From positions 35,222 through 99,221 of the forward strand of contig NIVC01001116.1 in the NCBI GenBank assembly GCA_002269645.1: a stretch of 64,000 nucleotides of DNA, in the 5' to 3' direction. Under the pieces are notes generated by a model. The model saw nothing but the letters and a program-made list of their open reading frames with translations. It was not told where the DNA came from and ran no database searches. Of this stretch, positions 19,345 through 64,000 are shown piece by piece; within the stretch, counting starts at the first letter, position 1; each line of letters opens with the position of its first letter. The position numbers and the translations under genes were made by a program. Origin of the DNA: Macrostomum lignano. Lineage: Eukaryota.

Positions 19345-19345
19345 C

Positions 19346-20720: not shown

Positions 20721-20899
20721 TGCCAGTATCGCGCCCGAGCGAAACAGCAGCTCGGGAAATGGGACGGCTGGACGCAACATCGGGGGCAGCACCATCCAGC
20801 AGCCGAGCCAGCACTAAAGTCCCCGCCGCGGACTTTAGTCGCTCAGCAGGCCACTGCTAAGACCGCCTCCGCCGCACCTGTACAGCCATTTGCACCCAA

Positions 20900-27465: not shown

Positions 27466-27484
27466 ATGCCGGCCACCCCACGCA

Positions 27485-28845
27485 TGTGGCAGGCGAGTTG
27501 CCACAAAGAATTGATCAGATTTGATGAAATTGAACTTTGGGACATGAACATGGCGCACGTGGAGTTCCCTAGCTTTGCTTTTGCATCACTCCCATTGCAG
27601 TGTGTCTTCGTTCCGTTCCATGTATTTTGTCGCATGTGGCGGGATTTCTCTTTTAATTTTGTTTTTCATTAGTGTTGGATATGCCGCACCGTCTCATGTC
27701 CTTCTCTGTATATTTTTGCCCCGATGCATGTCCACTCCTTGGCCATACTGTGTGGTCCAAGCCCCTTTTGCCTATATAACTCGCAATGAATTTTGCATGA
27801 GGTTTTATTCTCCCTCTCCCTTCCCCCCTTTTTGTTTGTGTTTTCTTGGCATTTTAAGTTTTGTTTAGGCTTGTGTTTAAGTTTAGTTTTCCTTGTTTAG
27901 AGTCCTTAACGCTTTCTCTTACTTTTATTTCTGGTATCTTATATCTTGTGTTTTCAAGTCACACCCCCATCTTCATCAAAGTCATTCGTCATTAATTAAT
28001 ATTTAACATTTGCTTATTAAGCCTGCTTTAATAAACTTAATTCAACTTAATAAACTTAGTAACTCCGATTTTTCAATATCTATTCAATATCCAAAGCCAT
28101 AGTATATCTTAAGTCATACATGCGCAACAGTCGGCCGAGTCGGCCGATTGATTTGGCAGCCAACCATGGAAGTCGCAAAAATGCCCACCCAAAAAACACC
28201 AAGTAGTAGTACTAAGTAGCTGACGAGGCATTTTTGCCTGATAAGACAGTCATGGTTACTCCCGCCGTTTACCCAAAGTTGCGTTAATTTTGCTTTAGGT
28301 TTTTTTACATGTAAGTCGCATTTTTGGCCAAAAACTACGCTCGTACGTCGCATTTTTTGTTAAAACTAAGTCGCACGGCCGACCGAATTTTGGACGTTGC
28401 GCATGTATGTCTTAAGTCATTTGCCCGTGGGGTGTAAAATAACCAAGTACTCATCTCAAAGAAAGCTCTGAGACTTATTTGTTCCGTAATACGTAAATTA
28501 CGGTGGTGGCAGCAACTACCCTATTGAAAGTAATCAGCTCGACAACCCTACGCATCAGTTTACGGAGTCAGAAAATCTCCAGTGCTTCATCGCTTTGAAC
28601 GACCGCGCCGCTACACGACTGCTCCGCTACGATACAACTACTCTTCCCCCGGACTTGAGAACCTGGCAGTCGGAGAAAAAGGAGAAATTTTCTTGTTGAG
28701 TTTCGTCTGCGCGATTTTCCGGTTTATTCATGCGAACTAAACGTTTCCACAGAATTTCAAACGAGGAATCCGCCCCCACCTCACTGGTGTCAGCAAATTA
28801 TTCAAACCGAGTATCCAAAAAATTAATTTCTCCACCCCCACTTCA
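27485..28845 (+). repeat. 3' LTR carrying a MITE insertion
   Basis: TG...CA; matches the 5' LTR apart from 28115-28417. Confidence 0.9.
28115..28409. mobile_element. hAT-type MITE family A, copy 2 (inverted relative to copy 1)
   Basis: Perfect 14-bp TIR CATACATGCGCAAC; 8-bp TSD TCTTAAGT; the 5' LTR has the single empty site at about 18910-18917. Confidence 0.93.
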
Positions 28846-28945
28846 GTATTTATTCTACCGTAAGGAATTTATAGTAGACAAATTTGAATTTCATTTACGT
28901 AATTTTATTTTACAAATTATGGAATTAGGCCTGACACTATATATT

Positions 28946-32503: not shown

Positions 32504-35500
32504 ATGATGATGATGAGAAAAGCATTTCATCGTCAAGCTGAGCCAATTCTAAGTTCAAGAGTGCATATTGGCTCAGTTCGAAAGCATGCAGATAATTCAG
32601 AGACAGCATTGGAAGCCGAGGTTGACTTTGATACAGATTTACTTGCGTGTACACAAGACCCAGATCTTGAAGAGGCTGCTAAAAGACTTAGTTCCAATGA
32701 GTTCTACGATTTTGTCTGCCGCGCACAAATGAAAGCTGTAGCTGCCACTTTTGAGGACTTGCAATCTGCTATAGCTCATCTGGTATGTTGTTTTGAAGGC
32801 TTATATAGATTTTATAAAATTTAATAATTAATAAATAATTTGTTTGAATTATACCCTATATGCAACTTTTACCTAGCAGCCTTTGTCCTTCTAACCATCT
32901 ATGTTCCCTTATTAGTTCTTATCAAACAGTCTATCTGTCTACACTACATAGGAAATCCACCCTTGTCCACTCTTACCAGACAGTCAATCCACCCATATCC
33001 GCCCCCATCAGGCGTCAATCCACCCATATCCGCCCCCATCAGGAATCAATCCCCCCATCAGACAGTCAATCCGCCCCATCAGACAGTCAATCCGCCCCAT
33101 CAGACAGTCAATCCGCCCCATCCGACAGTCAATCCGCCCCATCAGACAGTCAATCCGCCCCATCAGACAGTCAATCCGCCCCATCAGACAGTCAAATCCG
33201 CCCCATCAGACAGTCAATCCGCCCCATCAGACAGTCTGCAATCCGCCCCATCCGACAGTCAATCCGCCCCATCAGACAGTCAATCCGCCCCATCAGACAA
33301 TCAATCCGCCACTATCCGCCGCAACCAGACGGGCGAATCATCGCCCCTTCTGCCGCCCCTCCGCCGTTTGTCGGAAATCCACCGACTGCCAGTAGCGGGT
33401 CTGTCAGAGTCGCAGAGATCAAAAGTTCGCTCTCAGCTATCTGACTGCCTAGCAACCATTCCCGCGAATGTCCTCACCGGTTGGATGGATTTCGCCCTAG
33501 CAACCGGTCGTCGTTGCCTAGCAACCTGCATGGTGGACTCTCACGGTGATATAGCCTCAGCAACTGATTTCGAATTGCTTAGTCTCACCCTGACAATATG
33601 TCAGAACTATTCGGACTCGGACACGACCGGAAACTTAGCCGTTGCCATGGTTACCAGCGGAGTCAGCCTGATTCGTCTTTGCCGAGAGTTACTGTCGGCT
33701 TGGTCCTTCGAACATCTCAATAGTCGACTGCACGACAGCGTTGAGCAGCTGTTGCGACAGTGCATCTCGGTGCCGTACAATTTGTACTTTAAACAAGAAC
33801 CAAAGGTTAGCAAAGACTGTATTTTAATTAATATATTTTAAGAGGCGAAATTAAACAGCGCAAAATTGCTCTGTTGAAAGTTTAAGTGAAGATTATTACC
33901 CGGATAATAGGGTCGCAAATTAGGTATTATTTGGCGACGAAACGTAGTCAAATTTATAATTGGGTCGGATTGCCTATGCAACAATCCGAAATCGGCCGAC
34001 ATTTCCGACGCCTATCGACGGCGCATTGCCTATTCAGTAATCCGACGTTGGACGACGTTTCCGACGTCTATCGACGGCGCATTGCTATACCGTAATCTGA
34101 CATCGAATGTCGTTTCCATCAAATGAGTAATTTTACATTACACCGGCGTTCAACTGACGTGTATCGTCATCGGTGGATATCGTCATCTATCGGCGTAATG
34201 TAATAAATACCCATTGACCAGCGACGCCAGGCAACTTATTTACAGATATTTAATGTTTTCGTTTGTTTTGAAGCTGTTTTAAAAAAATTAATTTTCAAAC
34301 CACTTTCAAGGTAACCTCTATGCTAAGCGACTACAAGCTGGTTAAGAGTGTAAAATCCTATCTGAGCTCTCCAGACGAAGATGTACGGCTAGCAGCTTAC
34401 TTGTTATTAGTATTTGCCTGCACAGAGTCTCAGGCCGCTAGCTGTCTGGTCGAAACTAGACTTGTTGAATTATTAATCAACAGGTTGCGATTGTCTATGC
34501 AAACATTGGATAGACGGTGTCAGGGCTATCATTGCATTGAATTGGCCAAGTGTAAGTTTGACGCTTAGTTGATGAGTTGGGTGTCTGGAGGGGCTTAATT
34601 CATTTGGGTGTCTAGAAGGGCTTAAGTCATTTGGGTGTCTGGAAGGGCTTAAGTCAACTGAGTGTCTGGAAGGGCTTAAGTCAACTGGGTGTCTGGAAGG
34701 GCTTAAGTCAACTGGGTGTCTGGAAGGGCTTAAGTCAACTGGGTGTCTGGAAGGGCTTAAGTCAACTGGGTGTCTGGAAGAGCTTAAGTCAATTGGGTGT
34801 CTGGAGGGGCTTAAGTCAATTGGGTGTCTGGAGGGGCTTAAGTCAACTGGGTGTCTTGAAGGACTTAAGTCAACTGGGTGTCTGGAAGGGCTTAAGTCAA
34901 CTGGGTGTCTTGAAGGACTTAAGTCAACTGGGTGTCTGGAAGGGCTTAAGTCAACTGGGTGTCTGTAAGGGCTTAAGTCAACTGGGTGTCTGGAAGGGCT
35001 TAAGTCAACTGGGTGTCTGGAAGGGCTTAATTCAACTTGGTGTCTGGAAGGGCTTAAGTCAACTGGGTGTCTGGAAGGGCTTAAGTCAATTGTGTGTCCG
35101 CAAGGGTTTAGGTAAATTAGGTGCCTCTAGCGTCGAATTAAATGTCTAAAAGCTGTATATACTCGTAGTTGGTGTCTAGTAACGTGTTCTAATTGAAAAT
35201 TATGTGCCTGTCTTTAATAATTCAAATTAGTTATCACGATAGAACAGTACTTACGCCCATACTGGCTACTAGCTACTAGATACGTGTGTGTCACTGGCCA
35301 TCACATAATCACATAATCACATAATTTGTGGTATGAAAACTGTAGTGGATGAATAAAACACAAAATTTCTAGGCTCACTCCGAATGGCTAGAAATGATTC
35401 AAACAAGGAGCAGTTAGTGGACAGGGGTCTGCTGACATTGCTTACTGATATGATGTCTAGCGGACGCACCGACGAACAACTGGTTGCCATGGAGACCGTT

Positions 35501-35832
35501 CTGTGCCTGTCATTCAGCGCCGCATGCGTGCCTCGAATACGGGAACAATGCAGAGCCGGCTTAAACACTATTCGACGGATAATTGAATCGAGCGAAGTCA
35601 CCGTTGATGCCTCTCTTCGAGCGTCAATGGAAGCGTTAGAATTCAACTTGGAGAGTCGAACGGCTGAGTCTTTGTTGTCTATGCGTCCGTTTTCTGCGCG
35701 TTACTTAAAAACCGAACAGTTTAATCTGAGCGACAGCGAGGAGGAGCAAGACGGCGAGGAAGGACAAGAAGAAGGTAAGAGCGTAAGAAACTTTGATTAA
35801 TTACATTTGTTTTGCTCAGTTAGTTAGTTAGC

Positions 35833-35906
<74 letters not shown>

Positions 35907-37978
35907 TTTAGTTAGTTAGTTAGTTAGTTAGTTCATTCGTTAATTAGTTCGTTCGTTCGTTCGTTCGTTTGTTTGTTTGTTTGTTTGTTTGTTTGTTTGT
36001 TAGCACTAAGCCAGTCAGTCAGTCATGTCCATTCCGGTAACCCCTGGGCTCGCACACTCACAAGATGAAACATCGACCATAGGTCTATCTCATTGTCACA
36101 TGTACGAGTATGCGCACTTTCAAGTCTTGGTTGTTGGCCCTCGCGGATGTGCACATCACAAGAGATTCAGAAGCTTAAGCTTAGCTACAGAGAAAAAATG
36201 AAAAGCATCCATTTTAAAATAAAAAACAGCTTCTGGCGAGGAAATCTGTGTTAGCACCGGCACCGCCAAAAAGTCGATAGAGACGAATGCTGAGGAAATA
36301 AAGTCAAAGTCAAAGAATGCTACTTCGCACGTGATGATTAGTTATCATCAGGCCACAAGTTCTGATCTGGCAATCTGGCTGAGGGATCGACTTCAAGAGG
36401 CGGAAATTTCTGTGAGCTAATATTCTCTTGTTAATACTTAAAGTAGTTCACATTTTTGCGGAATTTCATTTTATATCGTTGCTTAATTTTTTAAAAATTA
36501 ATTAAGGTATGGCTCGATTGCGACTCGATGCAAGGCTCCACGTTGGAATCAATGGCTCTTGCTGTGGAATCAGCCTCAGTTGTATTGATCTGCCTGTCGC
36601 GTGGTTATAAAGAGAGTAACTCTTGTCGAATGGGTGAGAAAAAACGTTTTACCGTCGTATCTGCACTAGCAATTGCTTTATCGAACGCCTAATTTTATGT
36701 TTTAAGGAGGTTGTAGCCTAGTGGTTGAAGCGTCGAACTCACGGCTTAAAGGTCGGTGGTTCGTTGCCCAATCCCCACTCGGAACAATTTGTGACCTTAA
36801 GCAAGACAATCAACTCTGCATTGCTTCAGATCACCCAGCTGTCAAATGGGTGCCAGCATTAGCTGGGGTAATTGAGGGCGTGTGTGGCGACCCCCCAGTC
36901 CTTGGACTTAACAGCTGTACGCAGCCTTCAGATGCGCCGCGCAATAGCTGCGGCTGAGCTGTCGGTTGCAAATCTGCCCAATAGGGCAGGTGTCATCAAA
37001 TATTATTATTATTTTACACCGTACAGCAATCTGATGTCGATGACTTCGGCCGACGTTCCCAAATTCTATCGACGTCGATGACAAATACATGCTTTTACAT
37101 TACATCGACGGATGCTGTACACTGCTGTACCACCCTGTGTGAGTGTTGTTTATAAGTGCGTGCTAGCGTACAGTATTGGCGCGCTTTTATGTGCTTAGGG
37201 GTCAGCGGAATGAGCAGAACTGCCTCAGCACTGGTTGTGTGACGATATAACCTGCGAGTATTTGTTTTATTCCTTTCTCTGTGCTCGTCATGCACTCTGT
37301 TGGAAAATTTTGGCTGTGTTGCTGAGTTACTTTATGATGTCCTTACCTAAGAAGCGTCATTTGAAACATTTTTCTTTGAACTCGTATTTTTTCACAGAAG
37401 CTGAATACGCCACGCGTAGAGGAAAACGGATTTTAACGCTGCAAGCGGAGAATCGCTACGTTCCAGACGGTTGGTTGGGCATTCTAGTCGGCACCCAGCT
37501 GCTGCTGGACTTTACCAAGCCTGACGCTTGGCCAGTCAGTTTGCCTAAGCTGATTAATTCTCTCCGGCTGGCTAATGATTCATCGCTGATAACGCCTGCC
37601 CCGGCAGCCCCACCACCCTCACCGCCCCCACCACCCCAAGCTCAGCTGCAGTCTAAAGAGCAACTCCTACCCCCACAGCAGCCAACCCCACCTCCGCCTG
37701 TACAATTATCGCTTCCTCCGAAGCCACCCCACCGCCACGCGTACGCAAACTGGTCAGTTGATCACGTGACTAAATGGCTGCACGACCGCCGTTTATCGCC
37801 GCATTTGGAACCATTCCATTTGACGGGCGAACATTTGGAATTTTTAATACAACTAAGACGCGAAGCTCCGGAAGCGTTCTATCGAATGCTGGAGACGCAG
37901 TTTAGGCTAAACAATTTTCACGAAGTGTACGCGTTTGTACGCAGCCTGAAATCGTTGGAAACTGGTGGTCAAGAATGA
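32504..37978 (+). CDS. ARM-repeat-like / TIR (TIR_2-type) / SAM-like protein
   Basis: Seven in-frame exons: 32504-32782, 33329-33805, 34311-34551, 35373-35774, 36230-36411, 36507-36633, 37398-37978. TIR HVMISYHQ...VWLDCDSMQGSTLESMALAVESASVVLICLSRGYKESNSCRMEAEYA...YVPDGWLG; C-terminal WSVDHVTKWL SAM-like segment. Exon 1 assignment is less certain. Confidence 0.85.
32985..33312. repeat. 21-bp tandem repeat (CAATCCGCCCCATCAGACAGT), intronic
   Basis: Tandem copies ending just before the acceptor at 33328. Confidence 0.92.
34575..35100. repeat. 27-bp tandem repeat (GGGTGTCTGGAAGGGCTTAAGTCAACT), intronic
   Basis: Tandem copies; source of the GVWKGLSQL pseudo-ORF. Confidence 0.95.
35815..36002. 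repeat. Compound tetranucleotide microsatellite (TAGT)n(TCGT)n(TTGT)n
   Basis: Direct reading. Confidence 0.95.
36707..37014 (+). mobile_element. tRNA-headed SINE, copy 2
   Basis: GGTTGTAGCCTAGTGG head, TCACCCAGCTGTCAAATGGGTGCC core, (ATT)n tail; homologous to 2146-2455. Confidence 0.75.
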
Positions 37979-50500: not shown

Positions 50501-53500
50501 CACTGACTCTTTCCCGACACCCACTGATTCTTTCCCGGCACCCACTGACTCCTTCCAGACACCACTGACTCTTTCCCGACACCCACTGATTCTTTATCGG
50601 CACTCACTGACTCCTTCCAGACACCACTGACTCCTTCCCAAACACCTACTGACTCTTTCCCGACACCCACTGACTCCTTCCCAAACACCTACTAACTCCT
50701 TCCCGGACACCACTGACTCCTTATCGACACCACTGACTCACATCCGACGTTTCTAATTACTCCTTGATCTAACCCAAGCAATTTTAAATAAGTATAAAAT
50801 GACTGTGCACTCATTTTGTTAAGTCTACCGCAGCAAAACCGAATTTTGCCCCTATACAGGACAACTTTGCTGGTTGTGGCACCTGCTCCGGGTATTCTTA
50901 CACCACCTGCAAAGCGTGCACTGCCAGCTACTGCAATACTCGACCGCCTGTTCTGAACTGTTACTACAGCAATGGAGACTATCTTCACAGCAGCCGAAGG
51001 AGGAGGAGATGTGAAAGTAGCTATTGCTATGAGTACAGCTTTACCTATGCTACTATCGATGTGAGTTTCAGACTCAAGTCGGAGTGCTGAAGTAATGTCT
51101 AATTTTATAATTTTATAGAATTAAAGTATAAAAATCTCTTTAACGGTTAGACAGCATCTTTGACCTGTTAGACAGTGACGTCAACCTGTTAGACAGTGAC
51201 ATCAACCTGTTAGACAGTGACATCAACCTGTTAGACAGTGACGTCAACCTGTTAGATAGTGACATCAACCTGTTAGATAGTGACGTCAACCTGTTAGACA
51301 GTGACGTCAACCTGTTAGATAGTGACATCAACCTGTTAGATAGTGACGTCAACCTGTTAGACAGTGACGTCAACCTGTTAGATAGTGACATCAACCTGTT
51401 ATACAGTGACGTCAACCTGTTAGACAGTGACGTCAACCTGTTAGATAGTGACATCAACCTGTTAGATAGTGACGTCAACCTGTTAGATAGTGACATCAAC
51501 CTGTTAGATAGTGACGTCAACCTGTTAGACAGTGATGTCAAACTGTTAGACAGTGACGTCAACCTGTTAGACAGTGATGTCAACCCGTTAGACAGTGACG
51601 TCAACCTGTTAGACAGTGACGTCAACCTGTTAGATAGTGACATCAACCTGTTAGATAGTGACGTCAACCTGTTAGACAGTGACGCCAACCTGTTAGACAG
51701 TGACGTCAACCTGTTAAACAGTGACGTCAACCTGTTAGATAGTGACATCAACCTGTTAGACAGTGATGTCAACCTGTTAGACAGTCTTCAACAACACTAG
51801 TATTGTCCCCATCATCATAGATCTTCTTCGCCGGCTGTGGAGAGTGCTCAAAGCTCGACTCCTATAGCAACTGTAGAGCCTGCAACAGCGGGGACTACTG
51901 CAACTCTGCCGCCAGTCTTCGAGGCTGGAATTTTACCGCCTTCGCCACCGCCGTCATTCTGGCTATGATTCGGTTGCTGTGACTCTGTTAACAAATGTCT
52001 GTCACGTGTTAACTTCAAACAGATTTATTTATTCCTGATTACCTCGTCTGACGCTTCTATTAGCCATCACAGCTCGCATTAACTGTCTCATCTGACAGAG
52101 TGGATGACCGCGAACCTATCCAGATACAGGGTGAAACAACTTGATGAAGAATAAAAACTTACTGATTGAAAAAATGTTTGTTTTATTATATATTCACTTA
52201 GCAGAGAATGCTAATATTCAATAACTAGTTGCCCTTTCTTTCATGAACAAATTTATTGTTTATTTTAGTGGAGCAGAAGGTTTGCTGGACCAGCCTCCTA
52301 GATCTTCAATTGCTGGACCAGCCTCCCATAACCCCAGTTGCTGAGCCAGCCTCCCAGATCCTCATTTGCTGGGCCAGCCTCCCAGATCCTCAGTTTCTTG
52401 GCCAGCCTCCCTGATCCTCAGTTGCTGGGTCACCAGCCTCCCAGATCCTCAGTTGCTGGGCCAGCCTCCCAGATCCTCAGTTGCTTGGCCAGCCTCCCAG
52501 ATCCTCAGTTGCTGGGCCAGCCTCGCAGATCCTCAGTTGCTGGGCCAGCCTCCCAGATCCTCAGTTGCTGGGCCAGCCTTTCAGATCCTCAGTTGCTTGG
52601 CCAGCCTCCCAGATCCTCAGTTGCTGGGCCAGCCTCGCAGATCCTCAGTTGCTGGGCCAGCCTCCCAGATCCTCAGTTGCTGGGCCAGCCTTTCAGATCC
52701 TCAGTTGCTTGGCCAGCCTCCCAGATCCTCATGATGTGTTCCTTATTACCAGTCCTCAACTGTAATCAAGGAACAATCACTTCTAGCTCTGTAGCTAGGC
52801 AACCCAGTAATCAAATGAAGGTATTCAATTACCTTTGAGTCCTTAAATGAGAGCTCTCGTAATAATCCTCGTCCGTAGTATCGCGATCAGTAACTTTCCT
52901 GTCCTTCAGGAAGTTTAGGCGCCTGGTAACAGTTGATCTGGTCCGTTATCTCCTTTGTCCTCTTGACTTCTTGCCGGCCGGTATCTGTAGTTCGGACCAA
53001 TAAGAAGCTTCCAAATTAACAATGGGTACCCTGCGCCAAACTGCGGTTTAATATAAGCCTACTCCTTCTAGTAGTGCCTCTATGCACTCTAGGTATGGCT
53101 CCGGAAACCACTGATAGTCTTCTAAGATCTATCAGGGGCAGTCCTTCTGGAGACTGCAACCAGTGGAGTCTAAACAGACTCAAGAGTCTCAGCAGACTCA
53201 AATAAACTCAAGTCTCAATAGACTTGAGCGAGACGTCTCAACCAACGGGCGCAAATGAGTAAGGCTTACCGCAAGAACTCGTCCACGACGCGAGTTTCTT
53301 CAGGAAGGCTTCACTAGAGCTTCCTCTTCGGAGCTTCTCTCCCTTGGAGATTGTTGGCTCCGGGTCCGTTCCGGACCACTTGTATTTATAGGCGTTCAGA
53401 CCTCTCTCGAGGTCGTACATCACTGTCTTCGCAAATGTCAAAGGGTCACGATTCGGTGGCTGTCAAGCATGACAGGGTAGAAAGTTGCGCAACTAGTCTA

Positions 53501-56500
53501 CTGTAAAAGCGCATGATTGGTTACCGTAGCTGGTAGACTTTGATTGGTTCATCCGGGTGCAACCCGAGTGCAAACAAAATGATGACTTGAAGGTGGGGTT
53601 TGAATTGACAGTTGTTGGTCGCACGTGATTGGGTGATTTCTAAAATTAGCATGCTCGAGGTCTCTCTCTTCCTATTGGTTAGTCCGAATATACTTATAGT
53701 TCAAAGCATACCTTTATTCATGCTCTTCAATTTACTACTAAATAAAATGTGTGAGTAGTACATTAACACTTTTATGTCTTCTTACGGGAGGTAGAACACT
53801 CTACAAAATCTCCCATGTTTACAAAAAAACTCGTCCCGAGTTTTAAAGAGAGGATTGAAACGCATAAAAAGTTCAAGCATGTCTTTATAATAATCATTTG
53901 TCATAAGTGTTACAGGTATTTAGTAATGGGTAGTTAAGAGCGTTGGTTATAAAAGTTATTTAAAGGTAAGTATACGCATGCAAATAAAATGTTTTTGGTT
54001 ACAGTATTGACATGTGCGCCAAGACTAACAATAGGCGCACTGCCGCAAACTACTTCTACCTATCGGGTAATTCTGCCAGAGCTGAATATAATGTGAGTCG
54101 CTTAAACATTGTCCGCATATGCGATGTCTGTTTTCACAAATAATTGGTGGCTTGACAGCCAAGTCATCAGTTAAACATATTGGGCATTCGTAGAGTTGCT
54201 GTAGTTGGGGCGCCTGTTTGGACAGTGCGTTGCCCATTGTCGTTGTCGCTTGAAGTTTGAAGTCGCTCAGATTAGTCGCCTCTTACGACAAGCTTGCGAA
54301 GCTGTAGAGCTATTCTGACCCGGTCTCTACACGGGTTGTTTTCGCAACTTAACGAGGTCGCAGATTGTAGCCATGGTGCTGGTTCTCGGTTGATGTTTGT
54401 GTCTCCTCGTGTTTTGTTGCGATGTGGCGGTTCGCCGAACGCGTGCGATCAGCGTTGCCTAGTGACGGTAAAAATGTTGTCGTGTCAGTGTTGATCTTCT
54501 TTAGTCGATGAATGTGCACGTAGAATTGGTGCTGATGAGGATCTTGCACATTGGCCAGGCGTGCCGTTGTCGGTGACGTTAGTTGGACCACTCGATATGG
54601 TCCTTTGTACTTCTGTGCGTGTTTGTGCGTCTGTTGCGGCGGATAGTGCAGGTAGACGATGTCGCCGGCTGTCAGAGTTGTCGATCTCGTGTCGGTGCCG
54701 GTGGTTAGAGCCACCTGATTGTCGATGTTGTGCTTGGCTACTTTCCATGCGAGGTGTAGTTGCGTGACGAACTTTTGAATGGACGTCGGGACTTCCACAT
54801 ATTGCGATGGTAGTAGTTGCTGTGCCAATAGGTTTGGTGGTTGGAAGTCTCGTCCAAACATTAGAAAGAATGGCGTATTGTCCGTTGATCGATGAATAGC
54901 GCTGTTGTAGGCCATTGTTACTGCTTGCAGATAGATGATCCAGTCGTCCGGTTGTTGATGCGCGAAGTGTGTAATCATCTCGTGTAGGTTGCGGTGAAAC
55001 CTTTCAACCATGTTCGCCTTCGGATTGTAGGTCGATGTGTAAATCTGCGTGATGTTGAGGATCTTCACCACTTGCTGAAAGAGTTGAGACGTAAACTGCG
55101 ATCCATTGTCCGATGTGAGGTTCTTTGGCGTACCGTACTTGCAGATGATGTCGTTGAAGAAACCCATTGCCACTGTCTGAGCTGTGATGTCCGGTATTGG
55201 TATGGCAATAGCAAACTTTGAGAAAATGTCCAAGGCTGTTAGGATGTAGGTGTAGGCTATGCCATGGAGACAGCTCGGTGGCAGCGGTCCGGTGATGTCG
55301 ATGCTGAGACAGTCCATAGTTGTTGACTTTGGTATCGATTGTAGCTGTGGTTTTTGTCGTCGTCCTGTCTTCGATGCTGCGCATGAGTGGCAGTTGTTGC
55401 AATACTGCTTGATGTCGCCATGCATGCTTGGCCAAAAGTAGTATTGCTCCACTCTTGCAACGGTTTTGGCTGCCGACAGGTGTCCAGCGAGTGGGTTGTC
55501 GTGCAGCTCGTTGAGAATTGCCTGCCTAAACGAATATGGCATGTAGATTTTAGGTTTGTTGTCACTCATCCAGTAGAGTCGTGACTTGTTGATTGTTAAA
55601 TGTTGTCGCTGCTTGCGCAGGAATTTTCGTTCCACGGGGCTGAGCTTGATGTCCTTGTCGTTGTTTTTAACTGCTATGTAGAAGTTGTCGTGTTCCGTCT
55701 CATCCACCAATTCCTTGATGTTAGGGATTGGATGAATGGCGTTGACTTCGTAGGCTCTTGACAGGGCGTCCGCGGCCTTGTTAGTAATTCCTGGTTTGTA
55801 GACGAGCTTGTAGTTGTAGTCCTGGATCTTGAGTGTCATCCTGATGAGTCGGTTGTTTGTTTGTCCTTTTGTAGTTACGACGTAGGTCAGCGGTGCGTGA
55901 TCTGTGCGTACTATCGTCTGTAATGGAGATCCATAGATGTAGTAGTGAAACTGTCGTAGGGCGAACAGAACTCCTAGTAGTTCTCGTTCCGTAGCTGACC
56001 ATTTTGTCTCATTCGGTTTAAGTGCTCGACTGACGTAGGCTATAGGTCGTTCCTTTTTGTCTTCAGTTTCCTGTAGTAGGACTGCTCCGAGTCCCGTTCC
56101 TGAGGCGTCTGTCTCGATGATGAAGGGTTTGTCGAAGTCCGGATGCTGTAGCAGTGCGTCTGATGTCAGCTGTCGTTTGATTTCGTCAAAACTTTCTTGT
56201 TGCTTTTGTGTCCAATTCTCCTGCTTCCATTTGTCGAACTTGAGCAGGTCGTACAGCGGCTTTGCTGTCTTCGCGAAGTTGGGTAAGAACTTTCGGAAGT
56301 ATTGCGCAAGTCCAAGAAATGATTGGACCTTCGTTTTGCTAGTTGGCGTAGGAAACTTTTTCACTTTATCCACGTTGTCTGGGTCCGGTGAAATTCCTTT
56401 GGCTGTCACCTGATGTCCCAGGTAACGCACGTTGTCTCGGAAGAATTTGCATTTAGTTGGTTGTAGCTTCAGACCTTGACGTTGTATAAGCGCGAGGGCC

Positions 56501-59500
56501 TTCTCCGTCGCTTCATAGAGTCGTTCGAAGTCTTCTCCGTAGGCCAAGATGTCGTCAACATAGTGCAACAGGTTCGTGCATCCTGCAAGCATGTATGCTG
56601 TTAGTCGGCTCATCGTTGCTGGGCTGTTGCTGAGTCCCATCGGCGATCGATTGTACTCGTATACTTGTCCATTGTAGGTTTTGAAAGCCGTGTACTGTCG
56701 TGACTCTTTCTCGATTTCAATTTGCCAAAATCCATGACGTAGATCGAACACTGTGAACAATTTTGCCGTGTTGAGCTTTGCTAGTAGTTCGGAGATCTTC
56801 GGTAGGCTTTGCTGATCCGTCGGTATGTACTTGTTCAGTAGTCTGAAGTCACATACGAGTCGTCTTTCGTTAGTCTCCTTCTTTTGCACCAAGAGACATG
56901 GTGATGAGTATGCTGAAATGGCTTTGCTGATGATGCCGTGTTTCAGCATTTTGTCGATAATCTCATCGAAGTGCTGTTGCAGATGCTTGGCGATCGGGTA
57001 CGGTTTGCACTGAATTGGTTCCGTGTGCGGCAGAAGTTTGATTTCCTGTTTGATGTCCTTGGCTCGTCCGATGTCGTAGTCATGGTGGCAGAAAGCGTCG
57101 TTGTACTTCCACAACAGCTGTCGAACTTTCCTCTTTTGCTGTTCCGTAATCGGGCTGTCATCCAAATTGATCTTCTTTTGAAATTCTTCCTCTGTTAGTC
57201 GTGGAGTCGCTTGCTCAATCAGCATAACCGATGCTTGGGTGTTGAGATGACCGATGCACATTCCTTGTCGTAGATGAACCGTTTCTGTGTTCGGGTTGAA
57301 TATTTGTACTGGCAGCTGTTTATCTTTTGCAACCAGTACTAGTGCCGTAGGCATCATAATTTGGTGTTTAGCCGTGACTCTTCTGTTTGGGTCGAATATC
57401 ATTGCTTCCTCCGTTGCGTTAGTTGCCTTTGCCTTTATCCAGCAGGCGCTCTCCGGTTGGATGATGACATCTTGTTGCAATGTTACTTTTGGTAGTACTC
57501 GGATCTGGTTGATCAATGGTTGTTCTACCGAGTCGATCTTGAACGTTTGCTTATTGAAGTCGAAGGTCAATGGTAGTCGAAGCTGCTTGAACGTGTCGAT
57601 GCCAACAATAACGTCCTGGTTTGGGAGTCTGTCGATGACGTACGTTGGAACTGTCAAATGTTTATTAGCGATTCTTAAATCAATGTCGGCTTTTCCCAGA
57701 ATGTTTAGCGAATGTCCTCCTGCTCCTGCAACTGCGATTGTTGCTGGCCGTAGAGCAAGTCGTAGCTTGTTGCACAGTTGTTTTGATATAACTGTGATGG
57801 AGCTGCCGGAGTCGAGTAGCGCTCGACATGGTAGATTGTTGATTACCACTTGAGCCATGGCTTTGCCAATTTCGGCGTGTAGAGTACATACGTAGTTCTC
57901 TGGCCATTTTGGGTCTTGCTGTTCTGCTTGATAGTTAGGTGGTTGTATTCTTGGTGCCGTTGGTGTTGTCGGAATCGATGGATATAGCCGCGTTGCTAGT
58001 GTCGGTTGCCCTTGAACCTCACGATGTGCAGTTTCTGTTAGTTCTAAACTGTTGTCGCCTTCCGTTGTCGTTCTTTGCATTATGGCATTCACTGTCTTCT
58101 TAGCTTTGGACAAGTTTGACTGAAGCACCGTACGATCGACGAAATGATGAAGATTGCCGTGACAATCCACACAATGCAAGCACCGTAGAAGATGAATCCT
58201 TGATAGAGACTGCCTCTTCCATTGAGCAGCTCCCAGAAGCTGTTTGTCCAAAATGATTTGATGGCGCTGTCCATTGAAACAAGGACGGGAAATCTTCCTG
58301 TCCCGGTTCCTTTGTCCTTTCTTGTGAACAGCTGGTGAATCATCTTGCGTTGGGTGATGAACGCTTGCAAGAAGTCGTTGATCGTCCATCCTGGTGTTAT
58401 CTCGTCAAGTTGGATATCGGCGAATGGCGTATACTTCGTTCTGTTGAATCGGATTTTCAAATCCTCCATGTCGTAGTTTTCGTCGACGATTACTTCCGGT
58501 TCTGTGATGTTTGCTGTCGTTCCAGTTGTTTTGATGACGTGTAGTGCATTGTCCAGTTGATAATAGTTTGCTGCCGTGGTGCAAGGTCTCGGTATTGCGG
58601 TGCCAACGATGATGTTGTGTACCGTGTCCAAGAATCCCTGAATTCGTTTTCCTTCGTAGAACGCTTCAATCCTTGGCTTGTCGTAGCAGGTTGTTGACGT
58701 GTTCGACGGCAAGATGTTAAAGTGCTGTATCGGCGTGCACTTGTATATCAACAGATGCTCGTATATTGGAACTGCCAAAACGTTCGTCATTCCGGTGATT
58801 TTACGAAAAGTCATCGTAGGGTTGACATAGTAGTTTTGTCTGGCATAATTTAAGTTGATTGCGTGCATTTTGCAAGTTAGCTGGACCAGTGTTCGATGCA
58901 AGTGGTTTAACTGGTTGTGTAGATTGTGATCCAAAGCCGTTATCTTTGCTGACAGTAGTCGGTTTGACACCAGTTTGGGACGTTCGATGTCACGTCGTCG
59001 TCTGTTCTGTTGTTCCTGCTGTTGATACGTTCCGTTGATGATCGCCAGAAAGGTTTGTTTGTCGTCATCTTTTACGTAGACTGGTATCTCTTGTTCCGAG
59101 ATGAATAGTGTCTTGTCTGTATCCTTGCATTTCAGTTTTTGCTCGACTGGTTTCTTTTGAAACGTCAGTGCCAAGTCTCCTGACTTTGCCAAAAACGTGT
59201 TTGACAGTAGACCTCCTTCAACTGTGTGATACTTTTGAAGCTTGCAGTCAATTTCCGGCTCAACTTCCCACGCGAAGAAGTATTGTCGTGACTTAGATGG
59301 TTCTTCATATCGTGAGTCGCCTCTGCGTATAATTTGCCATCGATAGTCTTGATGATATGTTGGACTCAACGGTAAGCTGTATAGTTCCTCATTCCGCAGT
59401 ATCGGCGTTGGACACCATCCTTTGCTGTATCGGCAGTCGCTTAATTGCAGTTGTAGCGACTCCATTTTTTCAAAAGGATTGTGGTAGAATGGAATATTCC

Positions 59501-62500
59501 TGATTAGGTAACTGTTTCGTGTCATGTAGTTAGTCCATGCTTCCGAAAAGTGTACATATCGTCCGTTTGCTGAGTTCTTCGTTCGGTAAAGTTGTGCCTC
59601 CCCCACTTTCTCATCCGGTTCTAGCTGACCATCCTTTGAGAACAGTGTTTGGTTCCATTGTAGACATTCAGCGTGCGACACATGTAGTTCGTGTTGCCAA
59701 AATCGAATTCTGTTCCATTGTCCTCGCCAAACTTTTTCCACTAGGTGCTTGTCTCTAAAGCACACTATTCCGAGTTGTCGATGCTTCTTGATGTTAGCTT
59801 TGTAGAGATCAATTGTGATCTTCTTTGGCTTCGTCTGATTTGTCTTGAAGTAGCTGCATTTGATGTCGGTTGGTATCTTGTAGATCATCGGTTGGATATG
59901 CGCATCCGTTGGACATATCATTGGTTTTCCATTGCTGTTGCTTTGGTGACTACTGCCGTCAGTAGTATTATGATGATCCAGAATATCCAGAATCGCCATT
60001 TTCTGAACGTTGCCGTTGTCTTTGCTGGCATTGGCTGCGGCTGCCATTCGTTATCTTCTGCGTCCGCATCGTATTCTTCCTCTTGTTCCATTGGCGTTTC
60101 CGAGCGCAAGGCATCCGATTCGTTCCGCTGCTTGTCGTCTTCATCATTTTCTTCCTTGCTTTCTTCCGATGTTGTAGTTGTGTCACTCCATTGTCTGCGG
60201 TACCTCACTTCGGCCTTGTAGTCGACCGTTTGAATGTAGGCTTCACCATTTCGTTTATATCGGATCTCGTAGCATTGATCGCTGTCGGAGCTTAGATTTC
60301 TTTCTTCCATTCCTTTGTGCCTTCCGTCTTCATGTTCTTTGTCGGCGGCTTGGTTGTCATCAGCGTCATTCTGCATCTCATAATCGTGATCGCTGCTTTC
60401 TTCTTGCTGTTCTTCTTCCATCTCTGCATTTCCGTCGTTGCTTCTTTCGTTGTCATCCTTCGTTGCCAGTTCTTTGTCGTTGCCTTTGTTTGTTTCTTCT
60501 TTTCTTTCACTGATGTCGCTTGCAATGTTTTTTCTGTGCTCACTTCTGTCTTTTCTTCTTCGCTGTCAATGTTAGTTTCTTTCATTTCGACCATGCTGAT
60601 GTTTTTTGTCTTTTCGCTGCTCTCCGCATCGAGCCAGTCGATTTCATTGATAGTGAAGTCCATTTCAAGTCGTCTATCGTGAAGACTTGCTGCTCTTGCT
60701 GTTCGCTTTCCGGTGTGTACGTGATGGCGTTTGCATATCGTTGCATCGCTTGCGTTGGTTGCTTGGGCATGTATCTGGCGTTTCGCGGTCTGTAGCCATT
60801 GTTTCCGAAGCGTTTCGTGTTTTGCTGCTGCCAATTTTGATGTTGTTGCCATGGTTTTTGCGGCTTCCTTCTGTTGAATGGCTGTCGCTGCATGTCATTT
60901 CTTGTTGACCGATGAGGACAATGTATTTGGTAGTGTCCTTCTCGTCCACAGTAATAGCATCTGGCTTGGGCTCGTTCATTTCGTCTTTTTTGTTCGGCGA
61001 TAACGGCTGTTTGATGTTGCATCAGTTTGTTTAGTTGCTGTGTCAGTTTCTGCACTTCTGTGTTGCCGGTTGTCATTAGTGGAGCGCTTGCTTCCCACTG
61101 CATTCCGCACCGTAAAAGGTCTTCCTCGGTTTCAATGTTTTCGCGTAGAAGTCTATCTCGGAGTGACGGCTGTGCATTGTTTATTACGTGCAGAATCAGA
61201 TTTTGTTCGCGATCCATCAATCGCTGTCGCTCTCTAGCGGCTAATTCTGCCGCACCCAGAGGTGGTTGGTCTGCAGCTGGCAGTGTTGGCTGATGCAGTG
61301 CCTTAATTATCTGACGGATGTCGTCCACAAAGGTCAGGAAGGATTCGGTTGGCTGCATCCTTCTGTTATGCAACTTGTGCAGTAGCACTGATCTGTTTGT
61401 GCCACAGCGGTTGAAATGCGCGCGCAGTTGAATGATTAATGCTGGGTAGTTTTGCTGTGTTGCCGCATCTAGTTTACCATAAATCTCTCGTGCAGTGCCT
61501 TGGAGGAGTGGTGGCAACAGTTGCGCTTTTTCTGGATTTTGTAGGTTGTATTCCCTACATACCAGGTCAAAATGATCAACAAAGGTGTTAAAGTCTTTTT
61601 CCATAGAAAAGGTGCCAACTGTCTCTTTGATATCTCTGTGCACCGTTGGATTGCGCCGCGCCATGTTGTTGATGGGATAGAACGGTAGCTCTAGGTCTGG
61701 GTCGATTTGTAATGGATCTTCCAGTGTGGTGTTTCTTTCGAAATAAACTTCGGTTGTAACTGATTGTCTCGCGGCGCTTTTGACACCTCAATTTGTTATG
61801 TCTGACCTTGACGGAATTCGGCTTTTGGCTGCTTTTTCTGACCTCTTATTCGCTGGCTGATTTTCGCACTTATGCGGCGTCCCGCAAAGTGTATCTTTAA
61901 AGTGCTTGAAGTGCAGCTGCTTCTTGCTTTTTTCAAAGGCCTTTCTTGTCTTCGTGACGTGCCTTGTCACGTTTTATCAAATTTCGGTTTGTTTTAGCTT
62001 TCGTCAAGTGTTTTTAATTTCGGTTTTGTTTTAGTGTGTATTGATTATTTTTCGGTTTGTTTTCAGTGTACCGGACGTTGTTTTCGGTTTTGTTTAAGGT
62101 TTACTCTTGCTCGAGCTCGTTAAAAACAAAAATTTAACACGCGTGCTCAAACGTTACTCAAAATTGACAGGTACTCAAGCCTGTATACCTAAACTTTTAC
62201 TCGAGTTTCAAATCGTACAAAAATCGAAAAGTGTCGAAAAGTGTTACCTCTAACACGTGCGCGCAAAATTAATGAAGTCGCTCTTTCGTCACTTTACAAT
62301 AGCTTGGCCAGGCTATTGCTCAAAAGTTTGAGTAGTGCCGAGAGGGCGAGATCACCAATTGATGTGTTCCTTATTACCAGTCCTCAACTGTAATCAAGGA
62401 ACAATCACTTCTAGCTCTGTAGCTAGGCAACCCAGTAATCAAATGAAGGTATTCAATTACCTTTGAGTCCTTAAATGAGAGCTCTCGTAATAATCCTCGT

Positions 62501-64000
62501 CCGTAGTATCGCGATCAGTAACTTTCCTGTCCTTCAGGAAGTTTAGGCGCCTGGTAACAGTTGATCTGGTCCGTTATCTCCTTTGTCCTCTTGACTTCTT
62601 GCCGGCCGGTATCTGTAGTTCGGACCAATCGGAAGCTTCCAAATTAACAATGGGACCCTGCGCCAAACTGCGGTTTAATATAAGCCTACTCCTTCTAGTA
62701 GTGCCTCTATGCACTCTAGGTATGGCTCCGGAAACCACTGATAGTCTTCTAAGATCTATCAGGGGCAGTCCTTCTGGAGACTGCAACCAGTGGAGTCTAA
62801 ACAGACTCAAGAGTCTCAGCAGACTCAAATAAACTCAAGTCTCAATAGACTTGAGCGAGACGTCTCAACCAACGGGCGCAAATGAGTAAGGCTTACCGCA
62901 AGAACTCGTCCACGACGCGAGTTTCTTCAGGAAGGCTTCACTAGAGCTTCCTCTTCGGAGCTTCTCTCCTTGGAGATTTTTGGCTCCGGGTCCGTTCCGG
63001 ACCACTTGTATTTATAGGCGTTCAGACCTCTCTCGAGGTCGTACATCACTGTCTTCGCAAATGTCAAAGGGTCACGATTCGGTGGCTGTCAAGCATGACA
63101 GGGTAGAAAGTTGCGCAACTAGTCTACTGTAAAAGCGCATGATTGGTTACCGTAGCTGGTAGACTTTGATTGGTTCATCCGGGTGCAACCCGAGTGCAAA
63201 CAAAATGATGACTTGAAGGTGGGGTTTGAATTGACAGTTGTTGGTCGCACGTGATTGGGTGATTTCTAAAATTAGCATGCTCGAGGTTCTCTCTTCCTAT
63301 TGGTTAGTCCGAATATACTTATAGTTCAAAGCATACCTTTATTCATGCTCTTCAATTTACTACTAAATAAAATGTGTGAGTAGTACATTAACACTTTTAT
63401 GTCTTCTTACGGGAGGTAGAACACTCTACACTCAGTTGCTGGGCCAGCCTCGCAGATCCTCAGTTGCTGGGCCAGCCTCCCAGATCTCAGTTGCTGGGCC
63501 AGCCCCAGATCCCCAGTTGCTGGGCCAGCCTCCCAGATCCTCAGTTGCTGGGTCACCAGCCTCCCAGATCTCCAGTTGCTGGGCCACCTTTTCAAAATTC
63601 TCGGGCTCTGCACTAACCGTACAACTTCGCCTCGTAGGTCCAGTTAGCATTGGCAACCCAACGCGTTTTGACGTCATTAAACTCGGCGATGGGATCCGGA
63701 ATTATTCCAGCCTGTCGTAAGTCGCTGTAAACATCTCCAGGCACCGAGCCAGGCACTGAGATCGCACCTACAAAGTTGTTAAGTTTGGTGTCATTTATTT
63801 TGTAGAATATCAATCAACTGGGACAGTAAATGCTTCATTTATTGCTCACCATCTGAACGGCGCAGAGCCCATTGAACATTTGGCGTATTTAGTGAGATTT
63901 TTGTCGTAATGGCGAATTATAAAATAACGTTTCGCTTTGCACTACTAGTCTGCCGTTAAACAGTAGAACTGTGAAGACACTATTAAGAAAAATTGTCCAA
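38559..64000 (-). CDS. MANBA: Beta-mannosidase (GH2 family)
   Basis: Exons: 63850-end (signal peptide; apparent 1-bp loss at 63898-63902), 63618-63767, 45142-45296, 44688-44899, 43871-44165, 42978-43322, 42127-42538, 41432-41742, 40525-40974, 39837-40046, 38559-38798 (a GTAAGT near its end may splice to a tiny terminal exon). Motifs FSWDWGP, LWWPNGYG, MLRVWGGG, IWQDF, VWVGNNENE, SEFGFQS, YWQLNDVW. Confidence 0.95.
38846..39705. repeat. 34-bp tandem repeat in a MANBA intron
   Basis: Unit TCAGTGAGCATCCTTATCCCTCAGTGCCGATCCT, highly homogeneous. Confidence 0.96.
45378..45985. repeat. 28-bp tandem repeat (GTTGCTGGGCCAGCCTCCCAGATCCTCA), array 1
   Basis: Same unit recurs at 52285-52731 and 63431-63590. 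Confidence 0.93.
46897..51982 (+). CDS. Two-domain Ly6/uPAR (three-finger)-like secreted protein with GPI signal, 175 aa, nested antisense in MANBA intron 2
   Basis: Exons 46897-46942, 49170-49288, 50860-51060, 51821-51982 are in phase. MKYLIVSVAILAAFISNAAASITCY...FAGCGTC...CKACTASYCN...LNCYY...CESSYCY...FAGCGEC...CRACNSGDYCNSAA followed by a hydrophobic tail. Absent from the ORF track. Confidence 0.85.
46970..49103. repeat. 22-bp minisatellite (CACCTGTTAGACACAGAGGAGW) in intron 1 of the Ly6-like gene
   Basis: Direct tandem copies. Confidence 0.97.
49320..50730. repeat. 20-22-bp C-rich minisatellite (CCGACACCCACTGACTCYYT) in intron 2 of the Ly6-like gene
   Basis: Direct tandem copies with alternating variants. 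Confidence 0.96.
51140..51785. repeat. 21-bp minisatellite (CAACCTGTTAGACAGTGACGT) in intron 3 of the Ly6-like gene
   Basis: Direct tandem copies. Confidence 0.96.
52285..52731. repeat. 28-bp tandem repeat, array 2 left part (continues at 63431-63590 beyond the LTR element)
   Basis: Same unit as 45378-45985; interrupted at CTCA. Confidence 0.92.
52732..53805 (-). repeat. 3' LTR (1074 bp)
   Basis: Direct repeat of 62360-63430; preceded on the minus strand by purine-rich AAACATGGGAGA (PPT-like). Confidence 0.95.
54025..54237 (-). CDS. 70-aa C3HC4 RING protein with N-myristoylation signal
   Basis: ATG in strong context (ACAATGG); MGNALSK; C18-x2-C21-x12-C34-x3-H38-x2-C41-x2-C44-x22-C67-x2-C70. 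Confidence 0.8.
   Translation of the reverse strand: MGNALSKQAPQLQQLYECPICLTDDLAVKPPIICENRHRICGQCLSDSHYIQLWQNYPIGRSSLRQCAYC
54349..58110 (-). CDS. pol: pol: protease-RT-RNase H-integrase, uninterrupted
   Basis: LLDSGS; PMGLSNSPATM and YVDD; ETDASGTG and TDHAPL; LHDNPLAGH...CNNC; IDITG, SDNGSQF, VERFHR; KYKGPY. Confidence 0.96.
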   Translation of the reverse strand, partial: SKAKKTVNAIMQRTTTEGDNSLELTETAHREVQGQPTLATRLYPSIPTTPTAPRIQPPNYQAEQQDPKWPENYVCTLHAEIGKAMAQVVINNLPCRALLDSGSSITVISKQLCNKLRLALRPATIAVAGAGGHSLNILGKADIDLRIANKHLTVPTYVIDRLPNQDVIVGIDTFKQLRLPLTFDFNKQTFKIDSVEQPLINQIRVLPKVTLQQDVIIQPESACWIKAKATNATEEAMIFDPNRRVTAKHQIMMPTALVLVAKDKQLPVQIFNPNTETVHLRQGMCIGHLNTQASVMLIEQATPRLTEEEFQKKINLDDSPITEQQKRKVRQLLWKYNDAFCHHDYDIGRAKDIKQEIKLLPHTEPIQCKPYPIAKHLQQHFDEIIDKMLKHGIISKAISAYSSPCLLVQKKETNERRLVCDFRLLNKYIPTDQQSLPKISELLAKLNTAKLFTVFDLRHGFWQIEIEKESRQYTAFKTYNGQVYEYNRSPMGLSNSPATMSRLTAYMLAGCTNLLHYVDDILAYGEDFERLYEATEKALALIQRQGLKLQPTKCKFFRDNVRYLGHQVTAKGISPDPDNVDKVKKFPTPTSKTKVQSFLGLAQYFRKFLPNFAKTAKPLYDLLKFDKWKQENWTQKQQESFDEIKRQLTSDALLQHPDFDKPFIIETDASGTGLGAVLLQETEDKKERPIAYVSRALKPNETKWSATERELLGVLFALRQFHYYIYGSPLQTIVRTDHAPLTYVVTTKGQTNNRLIRMTLKIQDYNYKLVYKPGITNKAADALSRAYEVNAIHPIPNIKELVDETEHDNFYIAVKNNDKDIKLSPVERKFLRKQRQHLTINKSRLYWMSDNKPKIYMPYSFRQAILNELHDNPLAGHLSAAKTVARVEQYYFWPSMHGDIKQYCNNCHSCAASKTGRRQKPQLQSIPKSTTMDCLSIDITGPLPPSCLHGIAYTYILTALDIFSKFAIAIPIPDITAQTVAMGFFNDIICKYGTPKNLTSDNGSQFTSQLFQQVVKILNITQIYTSTYNPKANMVERFHRNLHEMITHFAHQQPDDWIIYLQAVTMAYNSAIHRSTDNTPFFLMFGRDFQPPNLLAQQLLPSQYVEVPTSIQKFVTQLHLAWKVAKHNIDNQVALTTGTDTRSTTLTAGDIVYLHYPPQQTHKHAQKYKGPYRVVQLTSPTTARLANVQDPHQHQFYVHIHRLKKINTDTTTFLPSLGNADRTRSANRHIATKHEETQTSTENQHHGYNLRPR
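58089..60000 (-). CDS. env: Envelope glycoprotein, class III (herpes gB / chuvirus G-like)
   Basis: Hydrophobic signal WRFWIFWIIIILLTAVVTKATA, Cys-rich ectodomain with NxS/T sites, furin-like RRRR at 58992-59003, gB-like NPTMTF...LLIYKCTPI and CYDKP segments, C-terminal TM FIFYGACIVWIVTAIFIISSIV. Confidence 0.8.
60001..60670 (-). CDS. Acidic linker between the Gag nucleocapsid region and the Env signal (frameshifted in this assembly)
   Basis: Parts of track ORFs 60292-60852 and 59918-60421; D/E-rich. Confidence 0.6.
60582..61664 (-). CDS. gag: gag (capsid + CCHC nucleocapsid)
   Basis: FNTFVDHFDLVC...LLQGTAREIY, RRMQPTESFLTFVDDIR, zinc knuckle CYYCGREGHYQIHC. Confidence 0.92.
   Translation of the reverse strand: MARRNPTVHRDIKETVGTFSMEKDFNTFVDHFDLVCREYNLQNPEKAQLLPPLLQGTAREIYGKLDAATQQNYPALIIQLRAHFNRCGTNRSVLLHKLHNRRMQPTESFLTFVDDIRQIIKALHQPTLPAADQPPLGAAELAARERQRLMDREQNLILHVINNAQPSLRDRLLRENIETEEDLLRCGMQWEASAPLMTTGNTEVQKLTQQLNKLMQHQTAVIAEQKRRNERAQARCYYCGREGHYQIHCPHRSTRNDMQRQPFNRRKPQKPWQQHQNWQQQNTKRFGNNGYRPRNARYMPKQPTQAMQRYANAITYTPESEQQEQQVFTIDDLKWTSLSMKSTGSMRRAAKRQKTSAWSK
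62344..62357 (-). promoter_or_regulatory. Primer-binding site (tRNA-Val-like, inferred)
   Basis: TGGTGATCTCGCCC two bases after the 5' LTR end. Confidence 0.65.
62360..63430 (-). repeat. 5' LTR (1071 bp)
   Basis: Direct repeat of 52732-53805. Confidence 0.95.
63009..63303 (-). promoter_or_regulatory. LTR U3 promoter: TATA box with four upstream CCAAT boxes
   Basis: TATAAATA at 63009-63016 (minus strand); CCAAT near 63142, 63169, 63254 and 63299. Confidence 0.6.

Follow-up and report, generated by a model that had tools for sequence, protein, structure and literature searches.

A Ty3/gypsy family of Macrostomum lignano with gag, env and pol in one frame, likely translated as a membrane-threaded polyprotein

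The subject of this study is an LTR (long terminal repeat) retrotransposon in a 64,000-nucleotide stretch of the genome of the flatworm Macrostomum lignano (assembly GCA_002269645.1, contig NIVC01001116.1, positions 35,222 to 99,221 of the forward strand), which is called the window throughout and whose numbering is used for all positions. The element is 10.7 kb long, lies on the minus strand at 52732-63430 and has the gene order gag-env-pol, with its coding region split in the window by four frame breaks. We consider it very likely that the family to which it belongs carries Gag, a spacer, a predicted gB-type envelope protein (Env) and Pol in one frame, probably made as a single membrane-threaded polyprotein, and that the breaks in the window are errors of the assembly consensus.

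The element and its reading frame

The element is inserted in an intron of the host beta-mannosidase gene (MANBA), within a 28-bp tandem repeat and in the sense of the gene. It carries the marks of the Metaviridae, namely TG...CA LTRs, a target-site duplication and a primer-binding site (PBS) adjoining the 5' LTR.

62360-63430, minus strand: 5' LTR, 1,071 bp, TG...CA, with a TATA box at 63016
52732-53805, minus strand: 3' LTR, 1,074 bp, TG...CA, 99.4% identical to the 5' LTR
52728-52731 and 63431-63434, both flanks of the element: target-site duplication, 4 bp
62346-62357, minus strand: PBS, a 12-mer, 2 nt past the 5' LTR
63616-63771, minus strand: MANBA exon, with the element downstream in the same sense

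The profiles RT_RNaseH, RVT_1, rve and Integrase_H2C2 match above their cut-offs, and Pol has the order protease (PR), reverse transcriptase (RT), RNase H (RH), integrase (IN), with an RNase H of the gypsy type. The polymerase motif is YVDD and the motif in the integrase tail is presumably of the GPY/F type. Judged by its sequence, the element is a Ty3/gypsy LTR retrotransposon of the Metaviridae.

Five successive overlapping minus-strand frames cover the coding region (60582-61787, 60292-60894, 59918-60565, 58089-60050 and 54349-58404), each shift being in the same sense, as an earlier, sequence-only reading of the window had noted. A genome search with the window element gave 76 candidates, of which 40 matches are listed, ranked by likeness to the window over the element stretch itself; the 39 other than the window were used as copies. 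Relative to these the window is one base short at four places, the figures being counts over copies and not drawn from a multi-copy summary sequence.

60665-60666, minus strand: break 1, window shorter than 37 of 38 covering copies
60521-60522, minus strand: break 2, window shorter than 19 of 22 near-subfamily copies
59924-59927, minus strand: break 3, window shorter than 36 of 39 copies
58104-58105, minus strand: break 4, between env and pol, window shorter than 35 of 39 copies

Break 2 was counted in the 22 covering copies of the near subfamily only, because the length of the spacer differs in the remaining copies. The sites at 60666, 59925-59928 and 58105-58107 given by the sequence-only reading agree with these counts. 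Its remaining site, at 60551-60554, lies about 30 bases from the actual one near 60521, and since none of the 22 near-subfamily copies differs in length at 60551-60554 the peptide it proposed for that junction is wrong. It had also placed the breaks at short runs; runs do touch all four, but they are only one to four letters long, a weak association, and all four breaks fall on columns with two different letters among the copies.

A single unbroken gag-env-pol frame is present in 6 of the 39 copies, which come from two subfamilies. Counted from the gag ATG it has 2,439 codons in the near subfamily, very close to the approximately 2,440 expected from repairing the window, and 2,498 in the sister subfamily. 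Three further unbroken frames, of 2,502-2,535 codons, were found among 8 additional regions, two of them from a family with 64% identity in Env. In short-read contigs from four runs, taken from four studies, the longer form is seen at 58105 at full depth in all four, at 59927 in all four and at 60666 in three of the four, although such contigs pool all copies, drop rare variants and hold nothing specific to the window locus. Break 2 is absent among the short-read indel rows listed (19 more are unlisted) and two contigs over it are gapped; this and the pooling tell against the account of a single frame with artefactual breaks.

A putative membrane-threaded polyprotein

The single frame would encode the following parts.

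60660-61664, minus strand: Gag, opening with the first ATG at 61664 and holding a capsid region and, at residues 236-251, a single CCHC knuckle
59999-60659, minus strand: acidic spacer of about 220 amino acids, fast-evolving and variable in length
59930-59998, minus strand: membrane helix 1, a predicted internal signal anchor; a small-residue site of the signal-peptidase kind comes next
58197-59915, minus strand: Env ectodomain, a predicted class III fusogen (gB / nyamivirus-like)
58131-58196, minus strand: membrane helix 2, the Env anchor; a predicted protease site lies in the short tail behind it
54349-58104, minus strand: Pol, with a GPY/F-type motif and its stop at 54349
57583-57852, 56407-56886 and 55816-56214, minus strand: protease, RT and RNase H domains of Pol
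55021-55539, minus strand: integrase zinc finger and core, part of Pol

Exactly two strong hydrophobic peaks are found in the near and the divergent families, one on each side of Env, the peak at helix 1 reaching 2.2-2.4 on the Kyte-Doolittle scale. Since the number of membrane helices is even, Gag and Pol would both be cytosolic. Env has a furin-type RRRR at 58992-59003, a site conserved across families, and four N-glycan sequons in its C-terminal half. A model of Env built from 29 sequences has a predicted local distance difference test score (pLDDT) of 76, while its predicted template-modelling score (pTM) of only 0.48 is a point against the assignment that follows. The model matches herpesvirus gB with an E-value of 2e-20 (TM 0.45) and glycoproteins of the nyami/chu type with E-values from 1e-23 to 4e-22, Nyavirus midwayense standing at rank 2 (E 4e-22); the Pfam profile Monjiviricetes_fusion scores below its cut-off (E 2e-5). 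Env is accordingly a predicted class III fusogen, resembling gB and nyamivirus glycoproteins.

Hydrophobic-x-x-Ile/Leu motifs follow the knuckle and helix 2 and mark the borders of PR, RT and IN; they are kept across families. Pairwise ratios of nonsynonymous to synonymous change (dN/dS) among the unbroken copies are 0.01 in capsid and RT, 0.03-0.10 in Env and about 0.4 in the spacer, which is 50% identical between subfamilies; over the gag, env and pol domains, values of 0.01-0.2 indicate purifying selection.

In the arrangement that these features suggest, Gag and the spacer would be synthesised in the cytosol, helix 1 would act as an internal signal taking Env into the lumen of the endoplasmic reticulum (ER), and helix 2 would halt transfer, leaving PR-RT-RH-IN back in the cytosol. 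Two of the cuts would be made by signal peptidase, behind helix 1, and furin, at RRRR. Those at the hydrophobic-x-x-Ile/Leu sites would fall to the element protease, which would release Gag (past the knuckle), the Env tail, PR, RT and IN. The output would be equal numbers of Gag, Env and Pol, with Gag and Pol tethered to the Env-bearing membrane; this may take the place of what retroviruses achieve by myristoyl/matrix targeting and by a frameshift. Any Pol in excess would need to be degraded, as it is in Tf1. The sequence-only reading had already envisaged that signal peptidase, furin and the element protease process the chain, and the topology and motifs are consistent with this; the cleavages, as well as the topology, stoichiometry and particles, we infer from sequence.

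A 1:1 output of Gag and Pol is unusual for retroelements, which usually need Gag in excess of Pol, and this weighs against equal production. It is possible, if on balance unlikely, that the one genomic frame is used unequally, spliced or internally started RNA or ribosomal drop-off supplying Gag or Gag-Env in addition and the full polyprotein accounting for a minor part of the output. Besides the usual need for excess Gag, such a scheme would be in keeping with the working splice donor in the LTR at 62896, with the other joins predicted by the database gene model P0002, with the need of the RING-like genes downstream of pol for a subgenomic or re-initiation route, and with the occurrence of pol-less derivatives holding gag and half of env in several copies. 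It is disfavoured by the finding that no GT-AG joint lies inside the coding region among 15 listed of 29 joints, a sample that leaves room for subgenomic RNA, and by the six unbroken copies sharing no in-frame slippery heptamer, three of them having none at all.

Frame breaks in the window copy

If the family frame is single, as we favour, the breaks of the window copy call for an explanation, and they are likely mixed-read consensus errors of the assembly. Losses were examined in an alignment of 20 of the 40 rows, comprising 19 near copies besides the window; L022 and L027, whose cover is partial, as well as L028, L031, L049 and the far subfamily, lie outside it. One-base losses number 82 against a single gain. 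The loss columns coincide exactly with polymorphic columns in 40 of 57 cases against a background of 6%, with p = 1e-14 for coincidence within 2 columns, and only 4 nonsense codons occur across the 20 aligned rows. Homopolymer slippage was considered as a cause and rejected, as run lengths are barely above background and 40 of 85 losses fall in runs of one. It is because the losses sit on copy-polymorphic columns and not on runs that mixed reads are suspected: reads from sister copies would have been mixed at polishing and a base dropped where the copies disagree. The assembly deletions posited by the sequence-only reading are thus supported, with mixed reads rather than homopolymers as their likely cause.

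A second contig carries the same insertion, with 99.7% identity over 13 kb. Breaks 1 and 2 do not occur in it, and the three bases that the window's 5' LTR lacks are present; its own 3' LTR is short of bases at sites matching those gaps. Comparison of the two LTRs of the window shows three one-base gaps in the 5' LTR, as had been described, together with three substitutions. The gene model P0002 joins the same MANBA exon to the element and is ungapped across all four break places, 38-40 of 40 residues around the breaks being identical to a natural unbroken copy. The same kind of defect had been claimed for MANBA exon 1, and this was not borne out: the second contig has no length difference over 63595-63897, and a database gene model begins the exon at 63771, where the window has AG and upstream of which there is little similarity to solved beta-mannosidases.

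Two facts detract from this explanation, breaks 3 and 4 being common to the second contig and the window, and P0002 being a prediction that could represent another allele. They leave some room for a single-frame family in which the window insertion is truly dead, some or all of the four losses being real mutations; the breaks common to both contigs would fit, and one locus among dozens would be invisible in pooled short-read contigs. This nevertheless seems improbable given the concentration of losses on polymorphic columns, their excess over gains and the scarcity of nonsense codons. The two contigs also differ over breaks 1 and 2 and lack bases in opposite LTRs, P0002 is open through all four breaks, and four true frameshifts would far exceed the substitution load expected with near-identical LTRs.

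That Env and Pol are separate frames linked by a programmed -1 frameshift at about 58105, which the sequence-only reading had allowed, can be given hardly any credence: the short form occurs there in 5 of 40 copies, window included, a count inflated because the copies had been ranked on how closely they resemble the window in that very stretch, while 35 of 39 copies and the contigs of all four runs are in frame, nine natural unbroken frames exist, the database proteins ALD16272.1 (P0003) and P0013 continue from Env into Pol, and no slippery heptamer was found at the env-pol junction. Env and Pol are in one chain in the database proteins P0013, P0020, P0028 and P0048, some of which also include Gag. 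Given copies longer than the window, unbroken frames, short-read contigs that are in frame and the lack of the heptamer, a programmed frameshift is ruled out at the level of the family, leaving a single Gag-Env-Pol frame.

Accessory genes, leader and related elements

Downstream of pol the window has a short frame that is explained by comparison with other copies.

54025-54237, minus strand: RING-like open reading frame (ORF), 70 codons, what truncation has left of the first accessory gene of a pair

Two complete ORFs (222 and about 210 amino acids) follow pol in 9 of the 39 copies; in the others the first gene is partly truncated (9 of 39), reduced to a short remnant as in the window (18 of 39) or the region is uncovered (3 of 39). 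The pair lies at L040:208-1576, L048:198-1556, L071:8100-9423 and L073:8087-9350, is also present in the divergent family, and has disappeared step by step from the most numerous subfamilies, that of the window among them; at least 151 genome matches to these genes were found. The two are tandem paralogues, each with two Cys/His repeats and a helical tail, and 13 Cys and 2 His, zinc ligands of the C3HC4 type over the two repeats, are invariant in 8 sequences. Purifying selection is indicated by dN/dS of 0.09-0.29 in the four same-gene pairs for which it could be computed. Pfam RING matches are below cut-off, and the model (pLDDT 84) has RING domains as its best structural matches, weak ones (Foldseek E 0.14, Z 5.2, rmsd 2.0 over 47-48 residues). 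No homologue of accessory gene 1 was found among 93 candidates, of 122-389 amino acids, from 5.8 billion proteins; its look-alikes in the Atlas are viral RING proteins, again weak (<=0.91). A myristoylated RING protein like arenavirus Z was considered and rejected, the N-terminal Gly motif being missing in the divergent family and the Z match standing at rank 47 (Z 3.9). At a guess from their sequences, the genes might serve as E3-type counter-defence.

Two features lie at the other end of the element.

61665-62990, minus strand: leader, 1,326 nt without any ATG
62613-62896, minus strand: intron inside the LTR, GT-AG, 284 nt, with the same stretch in the 3' LTR and an ATTAAA signal at 62679

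The start of the leader was assumed to be about 25 nt below the TATA box. Its ATG count of zero compares with a mean of 22.5 and a minimum of 10 in 2,000 shuffles, which fits scanning to the gag start; ribosomes would scan it as far as the gag ATG. The joined form of the LTR intron was seen in both RNA-like runs and was absent from the other two, a sign of minus-strand transcription from the LTR, with the reservation that the 'RNA' labels are guesses, no run being recorded as RNA. In three runs the LTR is covered about 10 times as deeply as the internal region, and the spliced joint could stem from solo LTRs. An intron holding ATTAAA may serve to set mRNA apart from genome or to prevent premature polyadenylation. 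A further joint, from the LTR end at 62360 into env at 59171, was present at low depth in three runs, including DNA-like ones, and is an internally deleted or nested copy.

LTR pairs of the copies are 99.2-100% identical, 4 of 10 being without any difference, which points to recent activity, and several near-identical intact copies are present in the genome. The sister subfamily, with an LTR of 864 bp, has about 85% identity with that of the window over the internal region. Along the frame the synonymous divergence (dS) runs from 0.04 to more than 0.9, an unevenness that points to recombination among haplotypes. The N-terminal third of Env (about 59260-59915 in the window) is swapped as a block among copies, with dS of 0.7-0.9 and 86-88% identity, the C-terminal part being 99% identical; this third is a candidate host-facing variable region.

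A multi-copy derivative (C301, C352, C525, C1192, C2869; L080-L081) has a 1,031-codon frame of Gag, spacer and half of Env that ends past the furin site; both RING-like genes are kept and pol is absent in the one copy examined. It is likely a non-autonomous or interfering element. Contigs C87, C1130, C2121, C272, C1405 and C4009 hold many same-strand pieces of the element within tens of kilobases and resemble piRNA-cluster-like graveyards. A third, distant family (C2598, C4628 and C1674, equivalent to L075, L076 and L084; also P0013) has an Env only 28% identical within the same Gag-helix-Env-helix-Pol layout.

Elsewhere in the window there is a second gypsy-like element, apparently env-less, on the plus strand at about 19300-25300, with gag, protease and integrase-like frames and flanking repeats at about 18300-19300 and 27400-28900, and a pol-like fragment at about 16400-18100. 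Judged by their translations, host exons at 5200-14400 on the minus strand resemble a PDZ-PX-FERM sorting nexin and those at 35300-36700 on the plus strand an ARM/TIR-type protein.

Flavivirus, alphavirus and hepacivirus polyproteins have the capsid first, then an internal signal anchor, a lumenal glycoprotein, a stop-transfer and cytosolic enzymes, and are cut by host and viral proteases. The polyprotein of the window family would work in a like manner, with no homology implied; unlike those viruses the element is reverse-transcribing and integrating and has a predicted class III fusogen. The spacer and helix 1 also resemble the long cytosolic Env leader of foamy virus. Nematode endogenous retroviruses (NERVs) reportedly have a continuous gag-env-pro-pol frame, a metavirus RT, a nyamivirus-like Env and a small hypothetical or Upf1-like ORF at the 3' end, and are said to form a clade confined to chromadorean nematodes. 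The continuous frame and the nyamivirus-like Env recur in the window family, and the nematode database protein P0020 likewise has Env-PR-RT-IN in one chain. The reported confinement to nematodes does not extend to the window family, as near-identical proteins are labelled Macrostomum lignano and the RT clade label differs from that of the nematode rows listed, and its accessory genes, paired and RING-like, also differ.

Errantiviruses with a GAG-ENV-POL order and a gB-type Env have been reported from flatworms, nematodes and bryozoans; they are not monophyletic and belong to several unrelated clades (Chary and Hayashi 2026, PMC13524379). In that work the catalogued elements are classed by GyDB profiles, and Sacco et al. 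2022 is cited for the flipped gene order. These share with the window element the gene order, a gB-type Env between two membrane helices and multiple copies. One catalogued there, Platyhelminthes_Rhabditophora_Mlig_errantivirus_2, has a listed LTR of 863-864 bp, the length found in our sister subfamily (864 bp) and unlike the 1,071-1,074 bp of the window subfamily, and a 12-nt PBS identical to that of the window; the likeness rests on this listed PBS and LTR length, its sequence not being among the supplement rows covered. It is placed in RT clade S, while the nematode rows listed, 11 of 36, are in clade B and the other flatworm rows in clade E (PMC13524379). An Env-Pol database protein labelled Macrostomum lignano is 97% identical to that of the window element. 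The gene order is already known, and the window element belongs to a known kind. The novelty implied by the sequence-only reading accordingly falls away, with the order published, a look-alike catalogued (PMC13524379) and fused polyproteins in the protein databases.

The main text of PMC13524379 makes no mention of polyprotein, frameshift, splicing, accessory, zinc or ubiquitin; a single frame, its processing and the RING-like genes are not treated there. In the open-licence literature no description was found of the RING-like pair, the ATG-free 1.3-kb leader or the LTR intron, nor of an LTR retrotransposon with both an additional RING-finger ORF and env, nor, apart from PMC13524379, of a Macrostomum LTR retrotransposon with an envelope; PMC4604429 has no mention of LTR, gypsy or polyprotein, and PMC5408684 none of RING. 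Atlas virus, as described in PMC9094657, has one 2,828-residue polyprotein with Gag, Pol and Env and no stops, and resembles the window family in this single chain. The belpaoviruses Atlas and Cer13 differ in having the order Gag-Pol-Env, a C-terminal class II Env and YVDN, where the window family has an internal, predicted class III Env and YVDD. Membership of the Belpaoviridae was rejected, as the Gag-Pol-Env order, class II Env, YVDN and Pao peptidase are not found in the window element.

Tentatively, and with some doubt, the family may represent a 'complex' invertebrate retrovirus lineage apart from the nematode one, with Gag, a gB-type fusogen and Pol made 1:1:1 through the ER, an LTR intron splitting genome from mRNA, and a RING E3-like pair countering host defence in the way of Vif/Vpu-type adaptors or viral RING ligases. 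If this is true, its young, transcribed copies would make enveloped spread testable in a laboratory flatworm, and in the conserved RING-like pair an invertebrate retroelement would have a candidate module against host defence.

The pattern first noticed in the window resolves to an assembly artefact in an element whose gene order had already been published. As a point of method, an active family can be mistaken for a dead one, or for one with separate ORFs, when single bases are lost at sites where its copies differ. The family itself, which is young, has many copies, is under selection and seems to be transcribed, resides in a host that is likely tractable by transgenesis and RNA interference, and it would let the formation of enveloped particles, and the threading, cutting and balance of one Gag-Env-Pol chain, be observed in that host.

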